From an uncultured Thermoplasmatales archaeon (GTDB lineage Archaea > Thermoplasmatota > SW-10-69-26): DNA of 64,000 nt. Position numbers and translations under genes: made by a program. Under the pieces are notes generated by a model. The model made no database searches. It worked only from the letters and a program-made list of their open reading frames with translations, and was not told the DNA's origin. Below are positions 12,122 to 59,124 of the stretch, in pieces; the stretch's first letter is position 1, and every line of letters starts with the position of its first letter. The stretch is from positions 52 to 64,051 of the forward strand of contig CAZOQA010000005.1 in assembly GCA_964581775.1 (NCBI GenBank), written 5' to 3'.

Positions 12122-12941
12122 AGGAAGCGACCACAAGGGACGACGCATCGACGAGGAGACAACCATCGACACAGCCCCGGCACACGCTTGGGCCGCGTTC
12201 GCCGACCCCGACGAGCTGGCACGCTGGTTCGTCGACCGCGCAGCCGGTTCGGCCGAACCCGGGGGTCAGCTTACATGGGGATGGGATGACTACGATCTCG
12301 AACAGACGCTTGACGTCGTCGAGGCCGAAGACGGGAAACGCCTCGTCCTAAGCGTCACGTGGGGCCAAGGGACCCCCACCCTGATCGAGATCACAATCGA
12401 TCCTCTTGAGCACGGGTGTGTTGTGCGCCTGGTGCATAGCGGGTTCCGAGACGATGGTTCCTGGGACGGCGAGTACGAGGGGGCCAAGAGCGGGTGGACG
12501 AACGCGCTGGCCCACCTCCGCGTCTATCTTGAGGACTACCGTGGCCAGGACAAGCGGACACTGGACCTCGTCCGACCTGCCGCCTATGCTAGGGAGGATG
12601 TGCACGCGGCCACACGCACCCCGAAGGGCCTTGCAGGCTGGCTTGGCACGGCCAATCACAGGCTTGATACCGTCGGCGACACGGTTCGAATCGAACTGGA
12701 AAACGGCGATCTGCTGACCGGGGAGGTCGTCTCGGTCACCGACTGGGAAACATCCGTCACATGGCAGGAGGTCGAGGGGATCCTCACCTTCCAAGCCTTC
12801 CCCGGAGAGCAAGACATCGAGCAGGGCGACCGCATGCTCGGGTTGCGCGTGACGAGCTGGGGGAGCGAAGACCTTCTGGAACCGTACCGGAGCGATCTCA
12901 AGGCGTCGTTGGATCGCCTTGTCGAGATCGTCCAGCTCTGA
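12111..12941 (+). CDS. SRPBCC/AHSA1-like domain protein (two domains)
   Basis: AWAAFADPDELARWF, VRLVHSGF...GWTNALAHLRVYLE; overlaps the regulator gene. Confidence 0.85.
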   Translation: MTHEGSDHKGRRIDEETTIDTAPAHAWAAFADPDELARWFVDRAAGSAEPGGQLTWGWDDYDLEQTLDVVEAEDGKRLVLSVTWGQGTPTLIEITIDPLEHGCVVRLVHSGFRDDGSWDGEYEGAKSGWTNALAHLRVYLEDYRGQDKRTLDLVRPAAYAREDVHAATRTPKGLAGWLGTANHRLDTVGDTVRIELENGDLLTGEVVSVTDWETSVTWQEVEGILTFQAFPGEQDIEQGDRMLGLRVTSWGSEDLLEPYRSDLKASLDRLVEIVQL

Positions 12942-15842: not shown

Positions 15843-15983
15843 CAATCCTCCCTGGATAGCTGCCAAGGTGGCCAAGCCGGCCGGTCCGGCGTGGCGGGCT
15901 GGGTGCGGGAGGGCACGCATGGATGGGAGCCAATTAAAAAGGCGAACGTTCTTGGCGAGGCAAATGGAGGCCGGCCCTGAACG

Positions 15984-16493
15984 ATGTCATCCCCCTCTGG
16001 AGGCATGTTAGTGGCCCGGCCGGAGGAGGTCGTGCAGGCTGCGCGATCCAACGGGATCGAGGCCACGCTGTTCTCCGGACTCGATCCTGTCCGCACCGTG
16101 ATCGAGGCCTCCCAGACGCTTGACCGGGACCTTTCCGAGGTCGTGAACACGGTGCTGGTCACCGTGGGAGAGGACCCGGTGCTCGTGCTCGTTCCAGGCG
16201 ACCGACGGGTGGACGGTCGCCTCGTGGGGGAACTGTACGGGGCGGAGCCGCTGAAGGTGTCCCTGGCCACGCGGAGGGAGACTGAGGAGCAGACAGGGTA
16301 CTCGACGAGCCTGATCCCTCCCTTCGGCTTGGAGGAGAGCATCGAGGTGCTCGTGGACGAGAACCTGCTCGAGCACGAGACGATCGTGATGCCGACCGGG
16401 AGCCCCCGAGCCATGCTTGAGGTCCGCTCGGAGGATCTGACCAACCTCCCGAACTCGACGCTTGGGACCTGGTCGATCCCTGCCGAGGAGTAG
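15984..16493 (+). CDS. YbaK/aminoacyl-tRNA deacylase-like protein
   Basis: VVNTVLV, PVLVLVPGDRRVD, IPPFGL, VLVDENL, GSPR. Confidence 0.85.
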   Translation: MSSPSGGMLVARPEEVVQAARSNGIEATLFSGLDPVRTVIEASQTLDRDLSEVVNTVLVTVGEDPVLVLVPGDRRVDGRLVGELYGAEPLKVSLATRRETEEQTGYSTSLIPPFGLEESIEVLVDENLLEHETIVMPTGSPRAMLEVRSEDLTNLPNSTLGTWSIPAEE

Positions 16494-26811: not shown

Positions 26812-27975
26812 TCAGAGGTTCCCTCGTTTCTCCTGTTCTTGCTCGAAGCTCTTGAACAGGGCCTTGAAGTTCCCCTTCCCGAACCCTTGGGCGCCCTTGC
26901 GTTGGATGATCTCGAAGAACAGCGTGGGGCGGTCCTGGATGGGGTTCGTGAACAGCTGGAGGAGGTAGCCTTCCTCGTCCTCGTCGACGAGGATGCCCAG
27001 CTCCTCGAGGTCCTCGACGGCCTCGTCGATCCCGTCCAGGGGGACGCGGTCCGGGAGGTTCTCGTAGTAGGCCTCGGGTGCGTCGAGGAAGTCCACCTCG
27101 CGCTCTCGCATCTCGTCGATCGTGTCCAGGATGTTGCCGGTCGTGATGGCAAGGTGCTGGACGCCGGGGCCCGGGTAGAAGTCCAGGTACTCCTGGATCT
27201 GGGACTTTTTGAGGCCTTCGGCGGGCTCGTTGATGGGGATCTTCACGCTGAGGTCGTCGTTGGCCATGACGACGCTGCGCAGGGCGCTGTACTGGGTGGA
27301 GATGTCGTCCTCGTCGAAGTCGACGAAGCGCTGGAACCCGAACACGTCCTCGTAGAACTGGGCCCAGCTGGTCATCTCGCCCTCGGGCACGTTCCCGACG
27401 GTGTGGTCGAGGGTCTCGAACCCGACGCCGGGGCCCGCCTCGGGCGTGTCTTCGATGGGCTCGTACCCGGGCAGGAAGGGGCCGCCGTAGTTGGAGTCGT
27501 CGATGAGGGTGTGCACCGTGTCCCCGAACGTGGCGAGCGTGGCGAGTTCAACGGTGCCGTACTCGTCCTCGATCGTGTCGGGCTTGCGCACGGCGAACCC
27601 GTCGTCGATGAGCTCGTCGCCCTCGAACAGGTCCTCGTGGTCTTGGACCCGCTCGACGGCCTGCTGGAAGGTGCCGTCCACGTCGTTCGTCTCGAGCGCC
27701 ACGTCGCGGACGCCGTCCGTGTGGCGACCGACGTGGTCGGCGATGACGCTGTCCGTGGTCATGGGAGCCGTGAGGACGATGCGCACATCGCCCTGTTCCA
27801 TCACGTAGCTGGCGCGGTCGCGCACGCCGGTCTCGGGACCAGCGTACGCTACGGGCGTGAACCCGTACGCGTTCTCGTACACGTACGACGCCTGCTTGGC
27901 GTTCCCCACGTACAGCTCCACGTGTGCGAACCCGTCGATCGGGAGCTGGTCAGCCCGGTCTCCTTGTTCCGTCAT
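26812..27975 (-). CDS. hppD: 4-hydroxyphenylpyruvate dioxygenase
   Basis: HVELYVGNAKQA, LDHTVGN, SQIQEYL...GPGVQHLA, YLLQLFT, FFEIIQRKG..GFGKGNFKALF. Confidence 0.97.
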   Translation of the reverse strand: MTEQGDRADQLPIDGFAHVELYVGNAKQASYVYENAYGFTPVAYAGPETGVRDRASYVMEQGDVRIVLTAPMTTDSVIADHVGRHTDGVRDVALETNDVDGTFQQAVERVQDHEDLFEGDELIDDGFAVRKPDTIEDEYGTVELATLATFGDTVHTLIDDSNYGGPFLPGYEPIEDTPEAGPGVGFETLDHTVGNVPEGEMTSWAQFYEDVFGFQRFVDFDEDDISTQYSALRSVVMANDDLSVKIPINEPAEGLKKSQIQEYLDFYPGPGVQHLAITTGNILDTIDEMREREVDFLDAPEAYYENLPDRVPLDGIDEAVEDLEELGILVDEDEEGYLLQLFTNPIQDRPTLFFEIIQRKGAQGFGKGNFKALFKSFEQEQEKRGNL

Positions 27976-28142
27976 GCCCAATCCCTCTCCCCCCGGAACG
28001 GGTCGGCGTGCGATAAGGGTTGTGGGAGACGCAAGCACATGCTTTCTGGCAGGGAGGACGCGGGGCCGACTGCGGAACTTACATACGGGCGGGAGGGCTC
28101 CTTGGAGACCATGGATGGGCCCTGGCGCCCAAGGAGGTACTC

Positions 28143-30249: not shown

Positions 30250-31167
30250 ATGCGACTGGTCAGCCTCCGCCAAGAACGCGGGACCGAAGCCGCGCTCGAC
30301 ACCGGAGACCACCTGGTGCCCGTGCACGGACCGCTGGACCGGGACGAGCCGATGTCCATGGAGGCTCTTCTGCGCGAGTGGCCCGATGCTCGCGGCATGC
30401 TCCAAGAGGCCGACGAGCGGAGCCCCGACGACCACGAGGACGCGATCGCCCGGTCCGGCGCGGACCTTGCAGCGCCCGTGCCCGATCCTCCATCGTTCCG
30501 GGACTTCTACGCGTTCGAGGAACACGTCTCGCGCTCGTGGAAGCGGCGCGGCTCCACCGTCCCGGACGCGTGGTACGAGGTCCCCGTGTTCTACTTCTCC
30601 AACCCGTCCTCCATGGTGGGGCCCGGGCGCGTGGTCGAACGCCCCGCGTCGACGCAGGAGCTGGACTTCGAGCTTGAGGTCGGATGGGTGATCGGGGAGC
30701 AAGCGCGCGATCTGGACCCTTCCGAGGCGTGGGACGCGATCGTGGGGCTCATGGTGCTCAACGATTTCAGCGCGCGGGATGTGCAACGCAGGGAGATGAG
30801 CGTCGGGCTGGGCCCGAGCAAGGGCAAGGACTTCGCGACCGGGGCGGGGCCTTGCTTGGTCACGTTGGACGAGCTGGCGGATGCCCGACGGGGAGAGCAT
30901 CTCGATTTGGAGATGCGGGCCCGCGTGAACGGGGAGGCTGTCTCAAGGGGGAACCTGGCAGATCTGCATTACTCGATCGCTGAGATGACGGCGCACGCCA
31001 GCCGGGATGCGACGCTTCGCCCGGGGGAGGTGATGGGCACGGGCACGGTGGGCACAGGCTGCATCCTGGACCTGGGCACGGACGGGTGGCTTGAGCCTGG
31101 GGATGAGGTGGAGCTTGAGGTGGAGCGCTTGGGCGTGCTCCGGCACGAGATCGGGGCTGCCCTCTGA
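30250..31167 (+). CDS. Fumarylacetoacetate hydrolase family protein
   Basis: RDFYAFEEH, LDFELE, NDFSARDVQ, KGKDF, GTGTVG.GC. Confidence 0.92.
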   Translation: MRLVSLRQERGTEAALDTGDHLVPVHGPLDRDEPMSMEALLREWPDARGMLQEADERSPDDHEDAIARSGADLAAPVPDPPSFRDFYAFEEHVSRSWKRRGSTVPDAWYEVPVFYFSNPSSMVGPGRVVERPASTQELDFELEVGWVIGEQARDLDPSEAWDAIVGLMVLNDFSARDVQRREMSVGLGPSKGKDFATGAGPCLVTLDELADARRGEHLDLEMRARVNGEAVSRGNLADLHYSIAEMTAHASRDATLRPGEVMGTGTVGTGCILDLGTDGWLEPGDEVELEVERLGVLRHEIGAAL

Positions 31168-33226: not shown

Positions 33227-34558
33227 TCATCCTTCGTGAACGTGCACTTGCACGGCCAGGCTTCGGCCTCCCAGGTCCCGGGGTTCCCACGACTCGGCCC
33301 CGTACCCGTCCTGGGGGGGCAAGAGAGCGGTCACGGATTGTCCATGGTGGGCGCGCTCGATCAGCGCGTCGATGCCGGGGACCAGTTGCGTGTCTCCCAC
33401 CTCGACCTGCAAGGGCTCCAGCTGGTCGGGGTCGTCGAACCAGGCCGGTTCGCGGAACCAGGTCAGCGAGTCTTCCTCTGCGTACGCGGGCACGGTGGTG
33501 TCGAAGGGGCGGGCGTCCTCGAGCGTGCCGACGAAGTCGAACTCGATCGTGTCCCCTTGCTCGGTGCTGGGACCAAGGGGGCCTACGTTCACGGTGAGGT
33601 TGCGCGTGGTGGAGACGGTCTCGTTCTCGGGGTCCGCGAACGTCGCGTTCACGGGGTAGGCTCCGTGCTCGGCGTCCTCGGGCACATGGACGTCGAGGAA
33701 GAAGGTGTCCGTCTGACCGGACGCGATCACGGGTCGGTCGGCGTACCGGAGCTCGGCGTCCCACGCGTCGCCGGGGAGCTCCGTCTCGACGGTCCCGTTC
33801 AGGGGAAGGGGGCCCGTGTTGCGGACCGCGAGCATGAACTCGGCCGTGCCTTCGGGCTCGGCGCTTTGCTCGCAGTCGAACCCGTAAGAGGACAGCTCGA
33901 CATGGCCCTCGTCCGCGGGGCGCTGGGCGGGCAACCCGTGGGCCTCGTGCAGCCAGGCGTTCTCCTCGGGACGGTCCCGCTCGTCGGTGGGGAGCTGGCT
34001 GAGCCGTTGGGCCACGTCCAGCCCGTCGACGACGCGAGCGATGACATCCTGCTTGTCGTCGAACCCGGGAAGCGGCATGAGCGTGATGATGAACTGGGTG
34101 CCGCCTTGCTGGGGTTGCGTGCCGGCGATGGAGACGGTCCCGGGTTCGTCGTGGCGCAGGTGCTCGTGGAACTGGTCGGGCATCTGGTACTGACCCCCTG
34201 CCCCCCAGAGGTTGCGGTTGCTGGTGCCGCCGTAGTCCACGTCTCCACCCTGGATGAACGTGTCCGGGTAGAGCTGGTGGAAGCGCGTCTCGTCGTACGA
34301 GCCGTCTTGCACGTGGGTCAGGAAGGTGCCAGCGGGGAAGGGCACCTGGGCTTGGTAGACGACCAGCTCCATGGTGCCCTCGGAGGTGACAAGCTCGACG
34401 CGGGGGTTGAACGCCTCGGCCTCTTCCAGGTCGTACCCAGTCAGCATCTCGCCGCAGGGCTCGATCGGGTTGGGCGCGGCGTCGGTGCCGCTCGTGGGGC
34501 ATCCCACAAGGGCGACCGTCGTGAGGATCGCTGCAAGCAGGACCGCGCGGTCCCTCAT
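33227..34558 (-). CDS. Lipoprotein with cyclophilin-like, Ig-like and FKBP-like domains
   Basis: Lipobox LVGC; FHQ...FIQGGD...GTQFII cyclophilin fold; GDTIEFDFVGTL...FDT...LVPG...GYG FKBP fold. Confidence 0.8.
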   Translation of the reverse strand: MRDRAVLLAAILTTVALVGCPTSGTDAAPNPIEPCGEMLTGYDLEEAEAFNPRVELVTSEGTMELVVYQAQVPFPAGTFLTHVQDGSYDETRFHQLYPDTFIQGGDVDYGGTSNRNLWGAGGQYQMPDQFHEHLRHDEPGTVSIAGTQPQQGGTQFIITLMPLPGFDDKQDVIARVVDGLDVAQRLSQLPTDERDRPEENAWLHEAHGLPAQRPADEGHVELSSYGFDCEQSAEPEGTAEFMLAVRNTGPLPLNGTVETELPGDAWDAELRYADRPVIASGQTDTFFLDVHVPEDAEHGAYPVNATFADPENETVSTTRNLTVNVGPLGPSTEQGDTIEFDFVGTLEDARPFDTTVPAYAEEDSLTWFREPAWFDDPDQLEPLQVEVGDTQLVPGIDALIERAHHGQSVTALLPPQDGYGAESWEPRDLGGRSLAVQVHVHEG

Positions 34559-34752
34559 CACCCCGCCAGGAGGGCTCCCCCGGTTAAAGCGTTCGTGTTC
34601 GGACGCCGTCCTCATGCAGGGGGGGTTTCGAAAGGCTTTCACGCCGCGGTCTGCTGAAGGGGCCAGACGATGGACCCGTCGGGTTCGACCGGTCGCGCCG
34701 TGTCCCCACGCGCTTCCCCAGACGCATCCCGGCGCCGCATGGGAGGGACCTC

Positions 34753-37888: not shown

Positions 37889-39181
37889 CTATTTCGGCTT
37901 CTCGGTACCCCATTTCTCGACGGCTTGGGCCACGGCGTCGCTGGATTGGGCGATTGTGTCCAACCTTTCCCCGTCCATCAGGCCCTGGATGACCTCGCGC
38001 AAAGCGCGGGCGCCGGCCCGTGATCCGTCGGGGTGACCGTGGATGCCGCCCCCAAGCTGGATGACGAGCTCGTTCCCGTAAAGGTCCATGATCTCGGGGA
38101 TGATGCCGGGGTGCAGGCCGCCGCTGGCGACGGGGAACGCGGGCGCGATCTGGCCCCAGTCCTGACCGAGCAACGTGGCGCGCGGCTGGGTGTGCTCCTC
38201 GCGGAGCTGGTCCCGGTTGGCGGCGACCTCGTCCTCGGGGCTGACCAGTTTGCCCACGACGGTGCCGGTGTGGAGCTGGTCGACGCCGATGAGCCTGAGA
38301 AGCTTGGCCAGGCAGGGCATGGCCATGCCGTGCGTTTCGTCCTTGGTGAACATCGCGTGCATGGCCCGGTGCGCGTGGATGGCCAACCCCAGGTCTTCGG
38401 TCGCCTCACGGATGGTTTGCAGGCCCCCGAACCCGGTCGTGACCACGTCCACCATCGCGTACTCCCATCCTTCCTCGTTGAGGAGCTTAGCCCTCCGGAT
38501 GGCTTCCTCTGTCTCGGCCGTGATGTTGATCAGCGCGGACTTGGTCTCCCCGGTCTCCTCCTCCGCTTGGCTTCGCTTGCGGGTGAGCTCGTCCACGCGG
38601 TCCTCGAACCTGTTGAAGGATTGGCCGGTGAGGTTCTCGTCGTCCTTGATGAGGTCGACGCCGCCGACCCAGGCCTCGTACCCGACATCGGCGTGCTCGC
38701 TGGCGCTCCAGCCCAGCTTGGGTTTGGGCACGGTCGCGGTGAGCGGGCGTTGGGGGATCCCGAGTCGCTCGCGCAGGCCGTGGATTCCGTACGCTGGGCC
38801 CGGGAACCCTTCCAGGTACTCGGGGGGGAAACGTAGGTCCAGAAGGCGCAACCGGTCCACGGCCTTCATGCCGAAGATGTTCCCTGCGACGCCGCTTAGG
38901 AGCTGCGGCATGTTGCTGGGTTCCCACAGCTCAAGCGGGTAGCGGACCTTCACGGTCGTCTCGTCCCAGTCGTAAGCGACGGCCTTGAGCTCGTCCAGTC
39001 GGTCGGGCATCTGGGCGAGGGTGGTCCACGTGCCCACGCTGGATTCGCTGGCGATGCGGCCCAGCGCTTCGAGCCTGGAGGTGTCCGCGTCGGGCTCGTA
39101 TCGGAACAGGGCCAAGATGTCCGAGCTTTTGGGCTCGGCGTCGTCGTCGACGAACGCGTCGTACCATGCGGTCCCAGCCAT
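37889..39181 (-). CDS. rbcL: Form III ribulose-1,5-bisphosphate carboxylase
   Basis: ASESSVGTWT, VPKPKLG, GGVDLIKDDENL (carbamylation Lys), HAHRAMH, DQLHTGT, SGGLHPG, QLGGGIHGHP. Confidence 0.95.
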   Translation of the reverse strand: MAGTAWYDAFVDDDAEPKSSDILALFRYEPDADTSRLEALGRIASESSVGTWTTLAQMPDRLDELKAVAYDWDETTVKVRYPLELWEPSNMPQLLSGVAGNIFGMKAVDRLRLLDLRFPPEYLEGFPGPAYGIHGLRERLGIPQRPLTATVPKPKLGWSASEHADVGYEAWVGGVDLIKDDENLTGQSFNRFEDRVDELTRKRSQAEEETGETKSALINITAETEEAIRRAKLLNEEGWEYAMVDVVTTGFGGLQTIREATEDLGLAIHAHRAMHAMFTKDETHGMAMPCLAKLLRLIGVDQLHTGTVVGKLVSPEDEVAANRDQLREEHTQPRATLLGQDWGQIAPAFPVASGGLHPGIIPEIMDLYGNELVIQLGGGIHGHPDGSRAGARALREVIQGLMDGERLDTIAQSSDAVAQAVEKWGTEKPK

Positions 39182-39321
39182 CGTGGCCTCATGCGGGGCT
39201 TGGCACTTACGAGTAGCGCCGAGACGGCGTGTTCGAGCGACCTGCTCTTTTAAAGGGAGGCGGGGTGGATGTGGCCCTAGGGAAACCTTCATCCGGTCCG
39301 AGGCCCACAGGCACCTGGACG

Positions 39322-40884
39322 ATGCCTTCTGTCGGTTTGACGCTTTCATGCCAGCTTCTGGACCTCGACCTGGGTCGCTACCAGGTGGTCCTGAACAAGG
39401 AGGACGCGGAAACGCTGGGTGTGCACGCCCAGGATCGGCTCAAGGTTCGGGTGGACGGCGAGAGCGTGGTTGCCGTGCTGGACACCACCGAGGCCGTCAT
39501 CCAGCCGGGCCACGTGGGCGTGTTCCCCAACGTAGCCAAGACGCTTGCGTTGGAGAACGAGGATCCTGTGGAGCTCGAGCCTGCCGAGCGCCCTTCCAGC
39601 GTTGACCACATCCGCTCCAAGATGGATGACACGGAGCTGGAGGCTCCGCAGATCCGCGAGCTGGTGGAGGACATGGTCTCCGGGGCGCTCACCGACATCG
39701 AGCTGGCCGCGTTCGTGACCAGCGTCCAGATCCACGGCATGAACCTGCGCGAGACCGAGAACCTCACGCGAAGCATGGTGGACACGGGTGAGCGCATCCG
39801 CTTCGGGGACGAGGTCGTGTACGACAAGCACAGCATCGGGGGGGTGCCGGGGAACAAGATCACGCTGTTGATCGTGCCCATCGTGGCCGCGGCCGGGTTG
39901 AAGATCCCGAAGACGAGCTCGCGCGCGATCACGGGCGCCGCCGGCACCAGCGACGTGGTCGAGATGTTCTGCGATGTGCGCTTGTCCGCGGACCGGATCC
40001 GCGAGATCACGGACAGCGTCGGAGGCGTGATGGCGTGGGGAGGCGCTGTGAACCTGGCGCCGGCGGATGACATCATCATCCGCGTGGAGCACCCTTTGAG
40101 CCTGGATCCTCGCTCGATCCTCCTGGCCAGCGTGATGGCCAAGAAACAGGCGGTGAACGCGGACAGCGTCGTCATCGACATCCCGATGGGGGCCGGGAGC
40201 AAGGTCCCGCACATGGGCAAGGCCAAGGAGATGGCGCGGGATTTCATCGCGCTGGGCGACCGGCTTGGCATGAACGTGGAGTGCGCGATCACGTACGGCG
40301 GGCAGCCCGTGGGGAAGACCGTGGGCCCCGCGCTGGAGGCGAACGAGGCGGTGCGCGCCATGCGGGACGGCGATGCGCCCGAGAGCTTCACCAAGAAGGC
40401 AACCAGCGTGGCCGGCGTGTTGCTCGAGATGGGCGGCGTGGCCCGTCGAGGCCAGGGCCAGGCCGAGGCGCAGAGGCTTTTGGAGAACGGTGCCGCGTGG
40501 GAGAAGTTCTGTGAGATCGTGCAAGCCCAGGGGGGCCCCGAGCCGGATTTGCAAGAGGTGGGCGAGCACGCCAGCGAGATCCGAGCCGACAAGGGGGGGT
40601 ACGTTTCGGCGGTGGACAACCGCGCGATCGTGAAGATAGCCCGGGCGTTGGGGGCTCCCCGCGTGAAGGGCGCGGGCGTGGAGCTTCTGAAAAAGCGCGG
40701 GGACGGCGTCGAGGAGGGGGAGACGCTGTTGCGGTTGCACACGGAGAGCGATCACCAGTTGCGCATCGCCAAGCAGGTGGCCTCCCGCGTGCACCCGGTC
40801 GAGGTGGAGGGCATGCTCTTGGAGCGGGTCCCGGAGGTTCGCCAGATGGAGGGCGGCATGCACGTGAGCGAACCGGCCGAGTGA
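39322..40884 (+). CDS. AMP phosphorylase
   Basis: N-terminal double-psi barrel; DKHSIGGVPGNK, PKTSSRAITGAAGT, VEHPLSLDP; start 39322 or TTG 39337. Confidence 0.92.
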   Translation: MPSVGLTLSCQLLDLDLGRYQVVLNKEDAETLGVHAQDRLKVRVDGESVVAVLDTTEAVIQPGHVGVFPNVAKTLALENEDPVELEPAERPSSVDHIRSKMDDTELEAPQIRELVEDMVSGALTDIELAAFVTSVQIHGMNLRETENLTRSMVDTGERIRFGDEVVYDKHSIGGVPGNKITLLIVPIVAAAGLKIPKTSSRAITGAAGTSDVVEMFCDVRLSADRIREITDSVGGVMAWGGAVNLAPADDIIIRVEHPLSLDPRSILLASVMAKKQAVNADSVVIDIPMGAGSKVPHMGKAKEMARDFIALGDRLGMNVECAITYGGQPVGKTVGPALEANEAVRAMRDGDAPESFTKKATSVAGVLLEMGGVARRGQGQAEAQRLLENGAAWEKFCEIVQAQGGPEPDLQEVGEHASEIRADKGGYVSAVDNRAIVKIARALGAPRVKGAGVELLKKRGDGVEEGETLLRLHTESDHQLRIAKQVASRVHPVEVEGMLLERVPEVRQMEGGMHVSEPAE

Positions 40885-44273: not shown

Positions 44274-44666
44274 TCAATACGCTTCGATCTCGACGCCGGA
44301 GACCCTCTCGAAGTGCTTGCGGTTCCTTGTTAGGATGGGATGATCCTCCGCTTTCGCCATCCCGGCGATCTGGGCATCGATGGGGTCCAGCATCTCGCCA
44401 CGGCGAACCAGGCGGCCCGAGATGAGTCCAGCTTGACGCGCGTGACTCGGTTCGAACGCCAAGAGGGTATATGCACCCAGCACATCCTCGACGAGGTTGC
44501 GTTCCTCTCGGGGGCGGTCGGAGCGCTCGATGCCCTCGAACAACTCGAAGATGGCCGGGGACGGGATCCAAAGGACGCGGCCATCCCCCTCAAGCTGGCG
44601 CACGGTTTCCACGGCGTCTTGGTCGCCGCGGAGCAGGTCGATCAGGACCGTCGTATCGAGGATCAT
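44274..44666 (-). CDS. vapC: VapC PIN-domain toxin
   Basis: ILDTTVLID, FELFEG, IDAQIAG, LTRNRKHF. Confidence 0.9.
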   Translation of the reverse strand: MILDTTVLIDLLRGDQDAVETVRQLEGDGRVLWIPSPAIFELFEGIERSDRPREERNLVEDVLGAYTLLAFEPSHARQAGLISGRLVRRGEMLDPIDAQIAGMAKAEDHPILTRNRKHFERVSGVEIEAY

Positions 44667-44902
44667 TCCAGCCCGAGCTCCTCGCGTCGACGACGTGTGC
44701 GGTCCCGGCGGTTGGCCTCGATGGCCTCGGCCAGGCTCTCTGCAGCGTCCTCATCCATGGTTTCGGTCAGGTCGGCCAGAGAGCGTGTGCGCGTCAGGCG
44801 TCTTACCACTTCGCTGAAGGATTCTCCCGGCTGCCGCATCTGGGAGAGGGCCTCGTAGGCATCCTCGGCCAGGCTAATCGTCTTGCTACCCACGATGCCC
44901 AT
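44663..44902 (-). CDS. vapB: VapB-type antitoxin
   Basis: KTISLAEDAYEAL....PGESFSEVVRRL; 4-bp overlap with vapC. Confidence 0.88.
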   Translation of the reverse strand: MGIVGSKTISLAEDAYEALSQMRQPGESFSEVVRRLTRTRSLADLTETMDEDAAESLAEAIEANRRDRTRRRREELGLE

Positions 44903-52652: not shown

Positions 52653-53942
52653 TCACGGTTGTTGACCCGTGACGTCCTCCACGATGTCCCAGAACTCCTC
52701 CCGGGAGACCCCTTGCTGGGATCGGGTCCTCTCCCGGAACTCGCGCACGAACGCGCGGGCCTCCTCCTTGCCGCGGGCCTCAATCTTGGCCTTGATCTCG
52801 TCCGCGATCTCTGAAAGCTTAGCATCGTCCGCGTCGATCCCGTTGCGCTCCAACCGGTCCTTGACCGCCGCCGTCCCCGTGTGCTTGCCGAACACGAAGC
52901 GACGCTCGTGCCCGACCTCGTCGGGTTGCATGGGCTCGTAGGTGAGCGTGTTCGCGAGCACCCCGTGCGTGTGGATGCCCGACTCGTGCGTGAACGCGTT
53001 CGATCCCACGACCGGCTTCATCTGGTCGACGGGGACGCCGCTTGCCTCCTCGACCTTCTGGCTGAGCTCGTAGAGCCTCTCCGTCTTGATGCCCGTGTCC
53101 ACGTCGTAGAGGTCCTCAAGCGCCATCACGACCTCCTCGAACGCCGTGTTGCCCGCGCGCTCCCCGATCCCGTTCACGGCCGTGTTCAGGTTTGGGACGC
53201 CCGACTGGAAGGCTGCCAGCGCGTTCGCGGTGCCCAACCCGAAGTCGTTGTGGTTGTGGAACCCCCACTCGGGCGCGCCCGGCCGGCCCCCGGGCGGGCC
53301 CTCGGGCACGCCCAGCTCGCGCATCTTCTCGAAGAACCAGGATGTCGCGGGCGGCGTCATCACGCCGACCGTGTCCGAGAAGAGCACACGCTCGGCGCCC
53401 GCCTCGATGGCCGCCTTGTAGAGGCGCGCCACGAACTCGGGGTCCGCGCGCACCGTGTCCTCGGTCACGAACGTGGTCTTCAGGCCGTGGTCGACCGCGT
53501 ACTCGACCGCGTCGACGGCCATCTCGACGCACTCGTCTCGGGTCGTCTTGAGCTTGTGCTCGAGGTGCACATCCGAGCAGGCTATGAAGGGGACGCACTC
53601 GTCGCAGTCCGCTTTGAGCACCGCGTCGATGTCGCTTCGCACCGTCCGCGCGGCGCCCATGATGCTGGCGTGCTCGAGGCCTTCGTCCGCGATGGCTTTG
53701 ATGCTCTGTTGCTCGCCTTGGCTGATGGCTGGGATCCCGCAGTTGAGGATGTCGCAGCCGATCTCGTCTAGCAGCTTGGCTAGCTCGACTTTCTCCTCGG
53801 TGGAGTAGTAGACGCCAGGGGTCTGCTCCCCGTCGCGGAGTGTTTCATCCCAGATCACGAGCTCGTCGGGTAGATCGAACCCGTGGCTGCCTTCCACGGT
53901 CCAGTTGTGCAGGCCTTGGCGTTCGTCCCAGGCGCGCGTCAT
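52653..53942 (-). CDS. Homocitrate synthase/isopropylmalate synthase family protein lacking the C-terminal regulatory domain
   Basis: DETLRDGEQTPG, HNHNDFGLGTAN, NGIGERAGN, NAFTHESGIH, GKHTG. Confidence 0.9.
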   Translation of the reverse strand: MTRAWDERQGLHNWTVEGSHGFDLPDELVIWDETLRDGEQTPGVYYSTEEKVELAKLLDEIGCDILNCGIPAISQGEQQSIKAIADEGLEHASIMGAARTVRSDIDAVLKADCDECVPFIACSDVHLEHKLKTTRDECVEMAVDAVEYAVDHGLKTTFVTEDTVRADPEFVARLYKAAIEAGAERVLFSDTVGVMTPPATSWFFEKMRELGVPEGPPGGRPGAPEWGFHNHNDFGLGTANALAAFQSGVPNLNTAVNGIGERAGNTAFEEVVMALEDLYDVDTGIKTERLYELSQKVEEASGVPVDQMKPVVGSNAFTHESGIHTHGVLANTLTYEPMQPDEVGHERRFVFGKHTGTAAVKDRLERNGIDADDAKLSEIADEIKAKIEARGKEEARAFVREFRERTRSQQGVSREEFWDIVEDVTGQQP

Positions 53943-54059
53943 CGCGGCACGGATACGCACGGGTCCTGATAAAGGTGCTCAGACCCTCCTCTCTGAGGAG
54001 GGGTGAAGAGAGAATAGAGAAGAAAAGGCCCGCGTGAGCGGGCTGGGGGCGGGAGTCCG

Positions 54060-55056: not shown

Positions 55057-55323
55057 ATGGCGACGTTCTGGGGCATCGTCTGGTTCTTGATCATCGGCGG
55101 CCTCGCGGGTTGGCTTGCGGGTCTCCTGGTTCGTGGGTACGGGTTCGGTTTATTGGTCAACATCCTCATCGGAGCGGTGGGCGCCGTCTTGGGCGGCGTG
55201 CTCTTCGATGAGTTAGGCGTGGACACGGGGGAGGGGTTCCTCTGGCAGCTTGGCACAGCGCTCCTGGGCGCGCTGGTGTTGCTCGTGCTCGCCGGGTTGG
55301 CCAGCCGCTTGTTGCGGCGCTAG
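55057..55323 (+). CDS. GlsB/YeaQ/YmgE (transglycosylase-associated) stress membrane protein
   Basis: IIGGLAGWLA...G.G...NILIGAVGA.LGG. Confidence 0.88.
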   Translation: MATFWGIVWFLIIGGLAGWLAGLLVRGYGFGLLVNILIGAVGAVLGGVLFDELGVDTGEGFLWQLGTALLGALVLLVLAGLASRLLRR

Positions 55324-56666
55324 GGTCCCGATCGGGGGTGCACGTCGACCTTGACGGGTCCGGCGGGTCGAAGCGTGATGCTGGGCTCGATCTCGGGTCG
55401 TCCTTCTTGGGCCGGTGTCAACTGGAAGGCGGAGAGGATCCGGGCCAGGCATAGGCGCGTTTCGATCATGGCGAAGGAGTCCCCGATGCAGCGGCGCGGG
55501 CCTCCACCGAAGGGGAAGTGGGCGAACCGGGGCCGGGCGCCGTCGCGCTCGTCCAGCCATCGGGCGGGCTCGAAGCTGTCCGGGTCCTTCCAGAGGCGGG
55601 GGTCCCGGTGCACGACCCATTGGGGCATGAGCACCTGTGTGCCTTCGGGCAGGGTGTGACCGGAGACGGTGACGTCTTCCTGGGCCTCTCTCCCGATGGC
55701 CCACACGGGCGGCAAAAGCCGCATGGATTCGTCGATGACCGCGTCGAGCAGGGGGACCTGGTCGAGGCGCTCGAGCGTGGGGGCCTCGCCGTCGAGTACC
55801 TCGTCGAGACGATGGGCCAGACGAGCCTGGATATCGGGATGTGCGGCGAGCAGCCAGCTGGTCCAGGTGAGGCTCAAGGCCGTGGTCTCGTGCCCTGCAG
55901 CGAGGAAGGTGACCAGCTCGTCGCGTAGATCGTCGCGGTCCAGATCCGTGTCCGAGGCTTGGTAGGCTCGGATCAGGCGGCTCATCAGGTCCGACCCGAC
56001 GGAACCGTCGCGGCGGGTGATCAGCTCGTCCACGATGCCATGTAGGCGCGCTTTGGCTTTTCGGTACCGGATGTTCATGGGGAGCGGCATGGTCTTGGGC
56101 AGCATCATGAGCAGGCGGTTGTCGGAGCTGAACCGCTGCATCGTGGCGTCGAGGCTTGCGCCGATGGAGGCGGCTTGCTCGTCGAGGGTCACGTCGAAGA
56201 GCGTTTGAGCGGCGATGCGCAGGGTCAGGGTGGTCATGTCCTCGTGCAGGCTGCGCGTGGGGCTCGTGGCCCAGTCTTGGAGCAGGCGGTCGGTCTGGTC
56301 GAGCATCGCGGGCGCGTACTCGCGGATGCGTTTGGGGCGGAAGCTGGGCTGCGCCGTGGTTCGTCGTTTGCGCCATGCCTCGTCCTCGGCGACGAGCAGC
56401 CCGTTCCCCAGAGCGTCCCCGAGCGTCCAGCGTAGGTACTTGTGCTTCTGGAAGGCGTCGTTCTTCGTGATGAGCACCTGCTCGATGCCTTCGGGGTCGG
56501 CCATCTGCACGTAGCGCAGCTTGGCCATCCGGAACCGGGCTACAGGCCCGTGCTCTTCCCGGAGGTTCTCGAGGAAGGCAAGCGGTTCCCGCGTGAAGTG
56601 CGGGATGTTCCCGACGAGCGGCCAGCCGGAGACACCGGGCAGGGCGTCGTACGCGGACTTGGGCAC
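55320..56666 (-). CDS. Cytochrome P450
   Basis: AGHETT I-helix, ESMR (ExxR), FEPARW, FPFGGGPRRCIG heme-Cys motif. Confidence 0.96.
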   Translation of the reverse strand: MPKSAYDALPGVSGWPLVGNIPHFTREPLAFLENLREEHGPVARFRMAKLRYVQMADPEGIEQVLITKNDAFQKHKYLRWTLGDALGNGLLVAEDEAWRKRRTTAQPSFRPKRIREYAPAMLDQTDRLLQDWATSPTRSLHEDMTTLTLRIAAQTLFDVTLDEQAASIGASLDATMQRFSSDNRLLMMLPKTMPLPMNIRYRKAKARLHGIVDELITRRDGSVGSDLMSRLIRAYQASDTDLDRDDLRDELVTFLAAGHETTALSLTWTSWLLAAHPDIQARLAHRLDEVLDGEAPTLERLDQVPLLDAVIDESMRLLPPVWAIGREAQEDVTVSGHTLPEGTQVLMPQWVVHRDPRLWKDPDSFEPARWLDERDGARPRFAHFPFGGGPRRCIGDSFAMIETRLCLARILSAFQLTPAQEGRPEIEPSITLRPAGPVKVDVHPRSGP

Positions 56667-56712: not shown

Positions 56713-57786
56713 TTAGACCTCGTCGATCATCTCGAGCACCATCGTCTCGACCTTGTCGTCGCGGCGGCCCAGGGCGTACTCGACAATCCAGGGCACGTCC
56801 GTGGGTTCGATGCCGTACTCGCTTAGCGGTTCGCGCTCGATCCCGACCCGGTCGATGAGATCCAGGACGCCTTCCTGAGCGGTGGCCGCGTCGAGCGCGT
56901 CCGCGATCCGCTGGGCGCGCTCGGGTTGTCGCTCCTCTTCGAAGGCCATCACAACGGGCAACGTGAGAGCGCTCGTTACGCCGTGCGGGACGTCCCATGT
57001 GGAGCCGAGGGCCTTGCCCAGCTTGTGGGAGAGCCCGGCGCCGCTTCCGGCGTAGTTGATGCCTGCTGAGGCTTCTCGACCGGCCTCCAGGCACTGCGTG
57101 TGCGCGGTCTCGTCCTTGGCGTCCTCGACGGCGGGGGGTAGGTGCTCGTCGAAGAGCTCCAGCGCTCGCGTGCATCGCGTGTCGACCGCGTCGTCCGCGT
57201 CGGGACTCGTGATGCCTTCAGCGGCGTGATCCACCGCGCGGATGCCCGTGGCAGCCCACAGCCATCGGGGCGTGAACGAGCAGGCTTCCGCGTCCAAGAG
57301 CGCCACGTCCGGCACGATGCGGGGGTCGCTCATACCAGTCTTCACGGGTTTGCCGTCGGGGCCTTCCACGGTCCACCCGGCCAGGATCGTGAACTCGGCC
57401 CCAGAGAGCGTCGTGGGGACGCTCACATGCGCGGGGATGGCGTCCTCGAACCCGTTGGAAGCCTCGCGCTGCACGAACTTGGCCGCGTCGATGACGCTGC
57501 CGCCGCCGATGCTCACGAGCACGTCCGCGTCGGCTTGTTGGGCGCCTTCGATGGCTTTGTTCACGTTCTCTTGAGGGCCGTGTTGCCCGATGCCGACGTG
57601 CGTGCCCGCGTGGGCGTCGCCGAGGGCGTGCTCGATGTCGCTGACGAGGGGCGTTTCCCGCTCGACGCTGCCGCTTGCGATCACGAAGGCGCGCTCGCGG
57701 TCCCCGGCTTGGAGGGCCTTTTCGACCTCGTGCCGGGCGCCGGGTTTGTTGAGCACGTCGGGTTCGCGGATCGAGCCTCCGGTCAT
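56713..57786 (-). CDS. Fe-containing alcohol dehydrogenase family, maleylacetate-reductase-like
   Basis: IGGGSVIDAAK, VPTTLSGAE, RAVDHAAE, SHKLGKALG...PHG; only the last ~357 aa of the 852-aa ORF are real. Confidence 0.8.
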   Translation of the reverse strand: MTGGSIREPDVLNKPGARHEVEKALQAGDRERAFVIASGSVERETPLVSDIEHALGDAHAGTHVGIGQHGPQENVNKAIEGAQQADADVLVSIGGGSVIDAAKFVQREASNGFEDAIPAHVSVPTTLSGAEFTILAGWTVEGPDGKPVKTGMSDPRIVPDVALLDAEACSFTPRWLWAATGIRAVDHAAEGITSPDADDAVDTRCTRALELFDEHLPPAVEDAKDETAHTQCLEAGREASAGINYAGSGAGLSHKLGKALGSTWDVPHGVTSALTLPVVMAFEEERQPERAQRIADALDAATAQEGVLDLIDRVGIEREPLSEYGIEPTDVPWIVEYALGRRDDKVETMVLEMIDEV

Positions 57787-57851
57787 CGCTGGGTCAAGGC
57801 TGGGGGTGGCGTATGGGCGTTGCGGTCCCGGGGGGGGGGCGCCCGGCGGGG

Positions 57852-59003
57852 TCACTCTTGCCAGCTGAGGGGGTAGTCCGCATCGTCGACGCGGCGGGCC
57901 CACTCGGTCGTCTTGAAGGGGCTGTCGGCTTCGATCATGACGCTGGTCTCCTCGACCTCTTCCACGCCGATGGAGCCCTCGTAGCGGCCGGGTTGGGGGC
58001 CGTGGTGGAGCCCGCGGCGGTGGATCGTCATGGACTCGTCCGAGATGCCTTCCCGCGAGGAGAACTCGCCTTCGACGTAGAAGATGACCTCGTCCGTGTC
58101 GATGTTGCTGTGGTAGTAGGGCGCGGGGATCGCGTCCGGGTGGTAGTCGACCTTGCGGGGGACCCAGCTTATGACCTCGAAGCTGTCCGTCTCGAACGTG
58201 ACGTGCTCGGGCGGGGGTTGGTGGATCTTGCCCGTGATGGGTTCGTAGTCGCTGATGTTGAACGTGAAGGGGTAGTTGTAACCGTCCCATCCGACCACGT
58301 CGAAGGGGTGGTTGCCGAGGTCGTACGTGCTGATCGTGTCGTCGATCTTGACGTCCAGCTCGAAGCTTCCCTCTTCGTTGTTCGTGATGAGGTTCTTGGG
58401 GCCGTGAAGGTCGCGTTCGCTGTAGGGGGCGCCTTCGACGAGCTGTCCCCATTCGTTCACGAACGTCTTGGGGACCCGGATGGGGTCCGTGGTCTCGATG
58501 AGGTAGAACTTGTGCCCGGTCGCGTTGCGGAAGCGGTACGTGGTGCCGCGGGGCACGTGGAGGTAGTCGCCTTCGCGGTAGTAGACCTCGCCGAACACGG
58601 TGTCGAGGTAGCCTTCTCCTTCGCGGACGAACCAGAGCTCGTCGGCGCCTCCGTTGCGGAAGAAGCGATCCATGGGTTCGTCGGGGTTCACCATGGCGAG
58701 GTTGGCTTCGTCGTTGAACAGGACGACCCGGCGCGCGTCGATGGCGTCGCCGGTGCCGCCGATCTTGCCGCAGCGGAAGTGGTGGTGGCGGTGTTGTTCG
58801 GGTTCCCACGCCTCGGGAGCGACGTTGCGGGAGCCTAGCAGGTCGTTGACCTCGGTGGGGGCGTGGTGGTGGTAGAGGATGCTTTCGACACCCTCGAAGC
58901 CCTCGGTCCCGAACACCTCTTCGCGAAGCAGCTGTCCTTCCTCGGTGCGGAACTCGGTGTGCCGCTTGGGCGGCACCTCGCCCATCTTGTTGTACGGGGG
59001 CAT
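57852..59003 (-). CDS. hmgA: Homogentisate 1,2-dioxygenase
   Basis: NGGADELWF, HPFDVVGWDGY, KIHQPPP.H, PYYHSNID.DE, GLHHGP. Confidence 0.95.
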   Translation of the reverse strand: MPPYNKMGEVPPKRHTEFRTEEGQLLREEVFGTEGFEGVESILYHHHAPTEVNDLLGSRNVAPEAWEPEQHRHHHFRCGKIGGTGDAIDARRVVLFNDEANLAMVNPDEPMDRFFRNGGADELWFVREGEGYLDTVFGEVYYREGDYLHVPRGTTYRFRNATGHKFYLIETTDPIRVPKTFVNEWGQLVEGAPYSERDLHGPKNLITNNEEGSFELDVKIDDTISTYDLGNHPFDVVGWDGYNYPFTFNISDYEPITGKIHQPPPEHVTFETDSFEVISWVPRKVDYHPDAIPAPYYHSNIDTDEVIFYVEGEFSSREGISDESMTIHRRGLHHGPQPGRYEGSIGVEEVEETSVMIEADSPFKTTEWARRVDDADYPLSWQE

Positions 59004-59124
59004 GCTGCTCGACCTCGACCCCGGATGGGCGAACGCCTAGATAAAGGACCCGAGGGGTGACATATCGTCCCGTGGGTGGGGTGGGGGCGAAGGGACAAAG
59101 GGGCCGGCTATCTCTGCTGGACGG

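Follow-up and report, generated by a model that had tools for sequence, protein, structure and literature searches.

Tyrosine and phenylalanine are broken down, in the textbook account, through the homogentisate pathway, whose isomerase step acts on maleylacetoacetate and is glutathione-dependent. Which enzyme takes this place in an archaeal locus where the gene following hmgA (homogentisate 1,2-dioxygenase) encodes an oxidoreductase with the fold of the iron-containing alcohol dehydrogenases (Fe-ADH)? We analysed such a locus on a 64-kb stretch of DNA from an uncultured Thermoplasmatales archaeon (hereafter the window; G+C content about 66%). The Fe-ADH protein is a member of the maleylacetate reductase (MAR) branch of the Fe-ADH superfamily, and its gene is tied to homogentisate genes well beyond this locus. 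In our judgement there is about an even chance that it is a metal-independent, NAD(P)H-dependent reductase of the enoate type, which would open a reductive bypass from maleylacetoacetate via succinylacetoacetate to succinate and acetoacetate. The range from 56713 to 59003 holds two minus-strand genes, the hmgA-like gene and then the Fe-ADH-fold gene:

57852..59003, minus strand: short-form HgmA, 383 amino acids (Pfam HgmA_N, HgmA_C and Cupin_2)
56713..57786, minus strand: MAR-like oxidoreductase of the Fe-ADH fold, 357 amino acids (from Pfam, PDB matches, structural model, motif and operon context)

The original prediction, made from the sequence of the window, had placed an Fe-ADH-fold gene directly after hmgA. 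This is confirmed by an ATG 65 nt past the hmgA stop codon and by matches of the product to the Pfam families Fe-ADH (1.6e-24) and ADH_Fe_C (1.9e-26), while a profile search reaches no NCBIfam equivalog. The best PDB sequence matches are 9ph0 (1e-40) and then 3jzd, 3iv7, 3w5s and 3hl0, all of them MARs or MAR-subfamily entries that rank before the true alcohol dehydrogenases. For 9ph0 the name 'MAR1' is the depositor's label only, and its function was not confirmed in the literature searched. An AlphaFold2 model of the protein (predicted local distance difference test, pLDDT, of 93.1) has 3jzd, 3w5s and 3hl0 as its best Foldseek matches, with template modelling (TM) scores of 0.85-0.86 and root mean square deviations of 2.2-2.3. 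Many Fe-ADHs match the model at TM scores of about 0.8 or more, and the protein has the two-domain fold of the superfamily, in which a Rossmann-like N-terminal domain with the nucleotide loop is joined to a helical C-terminal domain. In the nucleotide-binding motif GGGS at positions 94-97, G94-G95-G96 are invariant and S97 is nearly so in the alignment of homologues.

The active site was mapped by sequence alignment to 3jzd, with the positions of PcpE, FucO and GraC taken from the cited papers. The segment G-L-S253-H254-K255-L-G-K258-A-L-G-S-T-W-D-V-P-H268-G aligns with 'HHKLCHTLGG..LPHA' of 3jzd. The resemblance of SHKLGKALG..VPHG to the HHKLCH motif of MARs, pointed out at the start, is thus real, since the window residues map onto the MAR positions in this alignment as follows:

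Arg183: metal-ligand Asp (FucO D196)
H187: PcpE His172
S253: PcpE His236
H254: PcpE His237
K255: PcpE Lys238
K258: PcpE His241 (= GraC His243, FucO His267)
H268: PcpE His251
K149: PcpE Lys140 (probable, from the 3jzd alignment)

In MARs, Asn or Arg takes the place of the ligand Asp, for which reason the active site is without metal; the metal ligands of FucO are D196, H200, H263 and H277 (PMC5125639). The window protein shows the replacement of the MAR subfamily (cd08177): Arg183 stands at the metal-binding Asp, as is typical of MARs, so the protein is probably metal-free. A metal-dependent alcohol dehydrogenase is ruled out by the same change from Asp to Arg183, which leaves three histidines at ligand positions (H187, H254 and H268) in place of the Asp-His-His-His set. 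The original prediction was mistaken in reading the motif as one in which a metal-ligand His is replaced. The two histidines that differ are His236, now Ser253, and His241, now Lys258, and the latter position (FucO His267, GraC His243) is not a metal ligand and probably contacts the substrate (PMC5125639); the ligand that is lost is the Asp. In PcpE, the signature of which reads LHHKLCHTLGG, His172 and Lys238 are essential and their Ala mutants are without any activity (PMC5741723). Both residues have counterparts in the window protein, H187 and K255. By its signature motif and its genomic context it is nonetheless not a canonical maleylacetate reductase, though it may well act in the manner of one on a homologous substrate.

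To place the protein within its subfamily we used a homologue search across 1.84 billion representative proteins, which gave 149 matches below 1e-30 and, with the matches of the first search, a set of 273 sequences. The subfamily motif in this set is S-H-x-[LI]-G-[RKHY] ... PHG, which nearly all of the sequences combine with an Arg or Lys in place of the Asp. All of the commonest motif patterns show this Arg or Lys, and HHKLCH is absent from all 40 of the 40 commonest patterns. The subfamily takes in 9ph0 as well as 340-amino-acid Rubrobacter proteins annotated as maleylacetate reductase, and relatives with at least 60% identity to the window protein are few and restricted to halophilic Thermoplasmata. 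A neighbour-joining tree of 169 subfamily members has the window clade, the L003/L014 clade and the Bathyarchaeia sequence group together with P0322 and P0369. The last two were picked solely by their position in the tree, and both turned out to be encoded in HPPD-FAH-HgmA-FeADH operons with 4-nt overlaps; the P0322 cluster includes a 'Candidatus Thermoplasmatota archaeon' protein. On a neighbouring branch, P0331 from a Dormibacteria metagenome-assembled genome (MAG) is encoded in an HgmA-HPPD-FeADH arrangement. Subfamily members outside the hmgA-linked part of the tree, namely Rubrobacter P0066, the actinobacterial-looking P0243 and P0286, do not lie beside hmgA. Position 258 (GraC His243) is Lys in 86% of the hmgA-linked clade, compared with 4% elsewhere.

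The genomic context varies with the distance between relatives. About 70 nt separate hmgA from the Fe-ADH gene in L005, and in L001 and L007/L013 hmgA lies 3-7 kb upstream of the Fe-ADH gene. More distant relatives have a compact operon in the order HPPD, FAH, HgmA, Fe-ADH:

L003/L010, Thermoplasmatales MAG: HPPD-FAH-HgmA-FeADH, with HgmA and Fe-ADH overlapping by 4 nt
L014/L015, archaeal metagenome contigs: HPPD-FAH-HgmA-FeADH, with a MazE-PIN pair before the Fe-ADH gene
L016-L018 and L019-L021, Bathyarchaeia: HPPD-FAH-HgmA-FeADH, with gaps of 8-12 nt in L016-L020
L107, Bathyarchaeia, 1.05-Mb contig: HPPD-FAH-HgmA-FeADH, then a proline dehydrogenase gene
L101 (Ca. Thermoplasmatota) and L102/L103: HPPD-FAH-HgmA-FeADH operons with 4-nt overlaps

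In the Bathyarchaeia locus L021 the gap is about 460 nt, and HPPD and FAH are off the contig. Altogether the Fe-ADH gene is linked to hmgA in at least six lineages belonging to two archaeal phyla and one bacterial phylum. A co-occurrence of hmgA and a MAR-like gene across archaea, one of the proposed checks, is therefore found: the four-gene operon is present in several Thermoplasmatota lineages and in Bathyarchaeia. Chance adjacency is ruled out by this recurrence across phyla and by the correct prediction of linkage from phylogeny, and the Fe-ADH protein very probably belongs to the homogentisate pathway in some role.

Two observations on these loci stand apart. The MazE-like/PIN toxin-antitoxin pair is located between HgmA and the Fe-ADH gene at 11351-12003 in L014 and at 2336-3015 in L015. 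The Fe-ADH protein P0401, labelled 'Candidatus Dormibacteraeota bacterium', is 84% identical to that encoded at 9191-10300 of L016, on Bathyarchaeota-labelled contigs. A conflict in binning or labelling would explain this, as would a recent operon transfer between archaea and bacteria of the soil. For the L016-type lineage, the archaeal assignment is backed by the 1.05-Mb Bathyarchaeia contig L107.

We then characterized the partner genes of the pathway. The window HgmA scores 28.0 bits against HgmA_N (cut-off 20.2) and 22.6 bits against HgmA_C (cut-off 21), and it matches Cupin_2 above the cut-off. Against the long-form model TIGR01015 it reaches 47.5 bits, below the cut-off of 510.75, and is thus of the short form. 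It matches Pseudomonas putida HmgA (3zds) weakly, and His331, Glu337 and His367 of 3zds, which we take to be the iron ligands, align with H298, E305 and H334. When ten diverse family members are aligned, these three residues do not vary, so that the 2-His-1-Glu set of the cupin is in place. The short-HgmA family is large and annotated at source as homogentisate 1,2-dioxygenase, and Bacillales proteins of the same form, some 385-390 amino acids long, share about 50% identity with the window protein. Disruption of Bacillus thuringiensis hmgA (390 amino acids) leads to the accumulation of homogentisate (PMC6193087); its product appears to be of the same short form as the window HgmA, as judged without aligning the two.

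Two further pathway genes in the window had escaped the first reading of the sequence:

26812..28038, minus strand: 4-hydroxyphenylpyruvate dioxygenase (HPPD), open reading frame (ORF) of 408 amino acids (TIGR01263)
30250..31167, plus strand: short FAH-family hydrolase, 305 amino acids (PF01557, 5.3e-55)

The HPPD (28038..26812) is bona fide, with 416 bits against a cut-off of 277 for the equivalog TIGR01263; its true start is probably the ATG at about 27975, and it shares 64% identity with the HPPD at the head of the L003 operon. The FAH-family protein consists of the C-terminal FAA_hydrolase domain only, with no N-terminal FAH domain. Its score of 66.7 bits against TIGR01266 (cut-off 375) sets it outside the fumarylacetoacetase equivalog. 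It is 58% identical to the FAH of the L003 HPPD-FAH-HgmA-FeADH operon, and we presume that it is the final C-C hydrolase of the pathway.

No candidate for a conventional isomerase emerged. Among 58 window ORFs scanned against Pfam there is neither a GST- nor a DinB-type protein, in agreement with what had been claimed for the window, and none occurs in the precomputed Pfam lists of the annotated related loci. The Fe-ADH protein itself has no match to GST_N, GST_C or DinB and is not of the GST-zeta/MaiA fold. In B. thuringiensis, which has a short hmgA, the gene for maleylacetoacetate isomerisation cannot be identified either (PMC6193087). The literature searched makes no mention of a 'maleylacetoacetate reductase', and none of the papers listed there for homogentisate together with Bathyarchaeia or Thermoplasmata contains the word homogentisate.

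The removal of maleylacetoacetate is the only core step for which the four-gene operons hold no gene. Maleylacetoacetate carries the same reactive cis-enone as maleylacetate, extended by -CO-CH2-. The chemistry of the MAR family is the C=C reduction of cis-enedioic keto-acids (PMC5125639). As this chemistry fits a cis-4-oxo-2-enedioate and the step lacks a gene, reduction is the most economical reading. In the pathway that we propose, HPPD would supply homogentisate, the ring of which would be opened by the short HgmA to give maleylacetoacetate (4,6-dioxooct-2-enedioate). The Fe-ADH enzyme would then transfer a hydride onto C2=C3 of the cis-enone, and the formation of succinylacetoacetate would replace the thiol-dependent cis-trans isomerisation. 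Finally, the co-encoded short FAH-family hydrolase would split the 1,3-diketone into succinate and acetoacetate. We infer the substrate, product and cofactor of the Fe-ADH protein, and the acceptance of the saturated diketone by FAH, by analogy; other 3,5- and 2,4-dioxo acids are listed as further substrates of EC 3.7.1.2.

How general such a bypass could be was assessed by scanning metagenome contigs with a short-HgmA alignment, from which 80 loci were kept, 53 of them with at least 1.2 kb downstream of HgmA. Several results weigh against the reductive reading. The Fe-ADH gene is missing from 77 of the 80 loci, and from 50 of the 53 with sufficient downstream sequence. In a neighbour-joining tree, the FAH genes of Fe-ADH-containing and Fe-ADH-lacking operons interleave. 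Because they do, the same FAH type evidently works without a reductase, via an unlinked isomerase or direct hydrolysis. In the protein itself the MAR signature LHHKLCHTLGG reads LSHKLGKALGS, with six of eleven positions identical. H187 and K255 are not kept throughout the clade either, as L003/L014 have Thr at H187 and several hmgA-linked members have Val, Ser, Asn or Gln at K255. Lastly, the HPPD and FAH genes of the window are 26-30 kb away from hmgA and the Fe-ADH gene, which is adjoined by a cytochrome P450 gene.

The loci of this survey also define the limits of the association. The three that carry the Fe-ADH gene are all Bathyarchaeia-like, and the remainder are mostly HPPD-FAH-HgmA clusters of bacterial type, whose FAH genes form one orthologue family with that of the window. 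Given 77 loci without the gene and a common FAH family, the Fe-ADH is not a general requirement of short-hmgA operons; with three of 80 loci carrying it, its association with hmgA is real but lineage-specific. A specialised FAH clade tied to the presence of the Fe-ADH gene was considered and is not supported by the interleaved tree. Among 288 clustered ORFs flanking the 77 loci that lack the Fe-ADH gene there is no GST-like neighbour family, many of these clusters being shadow ORFs of high-GC DNA. The interpretation put forward originally is partly supported: membership of the MAR branch and coupling to the homogentisate pathway are borne out, and the reductive chemistry is proposed by analogy.

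Several of these points would also suit an enzyme that acts at another step of the homogentisate pathway, or on another of its substrates: it could reduce fumarylacetoacetate or both isomers in a detoxifying side route, return benzoquinone-acetate, the auto-oxidation product of homogentisate, to homogentisate, or reduce the carbonyl of an intermediate. Operon linkage shows membership of the pathway and not the step, the lack of the gene in most short-hmgA operons fits an accessory rather than a core role, and active-site residues vary within the hmgA-linked clade. We nevertheless regard this as rather unlikely, since the isomerase step is the sole core step without a candidate gene in the four-gene operons and the known enzymes of the MAR family reduce the C=C bond of cis-enedioic keto-acids (PMC5125639). 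Moreover, the 4-nt overlaps with hmgA indicate tight translational coupling and suggest that the Fe-ADH enzyme takes the product of HgmA. The same coupling bears on the idea that the short FAH cleaves maleylacetoacetate directly to maleate and acetoacetate, comparable to the direct hydrolysis known for gentisate, with the Fe-ADH enzyme acting downstream or elsewhere. In its favour, the FAH enzymes of most short-hmgA operons, where HPPD, FAH and HgmA are the only genes, have to manage with neither an isomerase nor a reductase linked to them. Yet direct cleavage would leave a conserved and translationally coupled gene without a role, and maleate, for want of an activating ketone, is an unfavourable target for hydride reduction by an enzyme equipped with nicotinamide only. 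We consider direct cleavage improbable.

The position of the Fe-ADH gene, exactly in the slot of the isomerase, could also be explained by a redox-neutral cis-trans isomerase of maleylacetoacetate, in which tightly bound NAD(P)H would replace the thiol as a transient hydride nucleophile. The hydride would be added reversibly to the enone and withdrawn again once the bond had rotated, and fumarylacetoacetate would be formed. The FAH orthologue family shared with operons that lack the Fe-ADH gene is most simply understood if FAH has one substrate throughout, and dehydroquinate synthase, in the wider superfamily, uses NAD transiently. Against this, the MAR subfamily offers no precedent, all its characterised members being net reductases, and the sequence gives no sign of a non-exchanging cofactor; such an isomerase is very improbable. 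Equally doubtful is the reading that the gene lies beside hmgA incidentally and encodes a conventional maleylacetate reductase (EC 1.3.1.32) from a pathway of the hydroxyquinol or chlorocatechol type. MARs are indeed the closest solved and annotated relatives, and a Rubrobacter relative is encoded near a dienelactone-hydrolase-like gene and two Glyoxalase-family genes, maybe ring-cleavage dioxygenases, in surroundings that resemble those of MAR genes. However, the 58 scanned window ORFs include no intradiol dioxygenase, dienelactone hydrolase or hydroquinone dioxygenase, nor any other Pfam match to hydroxyquinol, chlorocatechol or hydroquinone ring-cleavage genes. The linkage to hmgA recurs, as predicted from phylogeny, in the six or more lineages described above, and the signature motif diverges, with the whole S-H-x-[LI]-G subfamily lacking HHKLCH.

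The reductive bypass can be set beside known systems. With the MARs (EC 1.3.1.32, cd08177; PcpE, GraC 3W5S, MacA 3HL0 and HxqD 3JZD) the Fe-ADH protein has in common the fold, the loss of the metal-binding Asp and the GGGS motif, as well as the equivalents of PcpE His172, Lys238, His237, His251 and probably Lys140. It differs in an identity of about 25% in the structural alignment, in its context of homogentisate genes and in a presumed substrate that is two carbons longer. With the other members of the 'S-H-x-[LI]-G-[RKHY]...PHG' subfamily (9ph0, Rubrobacter) it shares the motif and the Arg/Lys, whereas Lys258 distinguishes the hmgA-linked clade. The GST-zeta maleylacetoacetate isomerases (GSTZ1, MaiA, HmgC) have an equivalent place in their clusters, beside hmgA and FAH, and would remove the same intermediate. 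The folds are unrelated, and a thiol stands against a presumed nicotinamide cofactor; the isomerase leads to fumarate and acetoacetate, whereas succinate and acetoacetate are predicted for the Fe-ADH route. The hppD-fahA-hmgA operon of B. thuringiensis also has a short-form HgmA and no identifiable isomerase gene (PMC6193087). Judging from related Bacillales and metagenomic operons, its FAH is of the same short type; it has no Fe-ADH gene, which the archaeal operons add as a fourth gene. A precedent for C=C reduction of a substrate other than maleylacetate is FUM7 of Fusarium, a MAR-family alkene reductase of fumonisin biosynthesis (PMC5125639), although it is a fungal enzyme of secondary metabolism with another substrate.

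The handling of maleylacetoacetate in glutathione-free organisms is an acknowledged gap, as exemplified by B. thuringiensis (PMC6193087), and the conserved fourth gene of archaeal homogentisate operons is a concrete, clonable candidate to fill it. If the bypass exists, it would add a new activity, maleylacetoacetate reductase, and an undescribed reductive pathway variant with succinate rather than fumarate as its end product. The annotations that these genes now bear, 'alcohol dehydrogenase class IV', 'iron-containing alcohol dehydrogenase' and 'maleylacetate reductase', would have to be corrected, and better metabolic reconstructions could be drawn up for aerobic Thermoplasmatota, Bathyarchaeia and Dormibacterota of soils and hypersaline sites. 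Moreover, the poorly understood appearance of succinylacetoacetate in human tyrosinaemia would gain an enzymatic counterpart.

As for the source of the window, its sequence is matched in soil DNA runs only and in no RNA runs (sequence-run search), and we assign it to a soil-metagenome archaeon. The nearest named relatives are the halophilic Thermoplasmata MAGs 'Thermoplasmatales archaeon SW_10_69_26' and 'Thermoplasmata archaeon CSSed11_322R1'. In the mechanical list of ORFs the Fe-ADH gene is embedded within an 852-amino-acid reading frame; its real start is the ATG at 57786, which in the alignment matches the N-termini of all close homologues. An overlapping plus-strand ORF (57142..57876) was rejected as a shadow ORF on account of its low GC3 and the absence of any sign of coding. 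The surroundings of hmgA contain the following elements and one further gene:

59038..59045, minus strand: archaeal TATA-box-like element TTTATCTA, putative promoter of hmgA and the Fe-ADH gene, read from the sequence
57787..57851, minus strand: spacer between hmgA and the Fe-ADH gene, 65 nt, G+C-rich
55320..56666, minus strand: cytochrome P450, 448 amino acids (Pfam p450, 2.8e-89)

The element TTTATCTA is located 35-42 nt 5' of the hmgA ATG. Direct reading of the 65-nt spacer reveals neither an A/T-rich promoter-like element nor a T-run terminator. With a spacer free of T-runs and TTTATCTA upstream of hmgA, co-transcription of hmgA and the Fe-ADH gene in the window is plausible. Between 57825 and 57850 the minus strand of the spacer has ten consecutive C residues between short G/C segments complementary to each other (CCGGG ... 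CCCGG), which could form a small G+C hairpin without a T-tract.

On the same strand, the P450 gene begins 46 nt past the Fe-ADH stop codon. L013/L007 likewise have a P450 gene (49% identical) in the neighbourhood of the Fe-ADH gene, as does L001 with a different P450, and none is present in the hmgA/Fe-ADH operons of the other lineages among the loci compared. The P450 is possibly associated with the Fe-ADH gene, and it might, like fungal PhacA and PhacB, channel aromatic acids towards homogentisate.

About 4 kb from hmgA (52653-53960, minus strand) the window encodes a DRE-TIM metallolyase with HMGL-like and HCS_D2 domains, resembling citramalate and homocitrate synthases. L005 (5178-6476), L007 (15327-16598) and L003 (1577-2827) have orthologues with 73-85% identity in the vicinity of hmgA or the Fe-ADH gene. 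An HMGL-like homologue with 36-38% identity is encoded about 15-760 nt downstream of the short HgmA in L024, L026, L030, L035 and L036, which are metagenome loci of bacterial type that show no adjacent FAH gene. The HMGL-like and HCS_D2 gene may have a functional link to the pathway or provide an alternative C-C-cleaving step.

In the SW_10_69_26 locus (L001), a short C-terminal fragment of an Fe-ADH (33% identical over 111 amino acids) and two C-terminal fragments of HPPD (59-73% identical over 33-46 amino acids) occur apart from the intact genes. These fragments, at 12163-12366 and 15884-16068, lie near an Xre-RES toxin-antitoxin pair and look like gene relics.

Elsewhere in the window, a 471-amino-acid ORF at 33227-34642 (minus strand) combines cyclophilin-type and FKBP-type peptidyl-prolyl isomerase domains, with a weak NPCBM_assoc-like segment between them. 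At 44274-44902 (minus strand), an ORF of 130 amino acids (44274-44666), PIN-like by eye, and its upstream partner of 79 amino acids (44663-44902) overlap by 4 nt and are probably a toxin-antitoxin module. A homologue of the RuBisCO large subunit (37889-39349, minus strand) is divergent to a Glycos_transf_3/PYNP_C protein (39229-40884, plus strand) that resembles AMP phosphorylase, a pairing which suggests archaeal AMP/nucleoside salvage around a form III RuBisCO.

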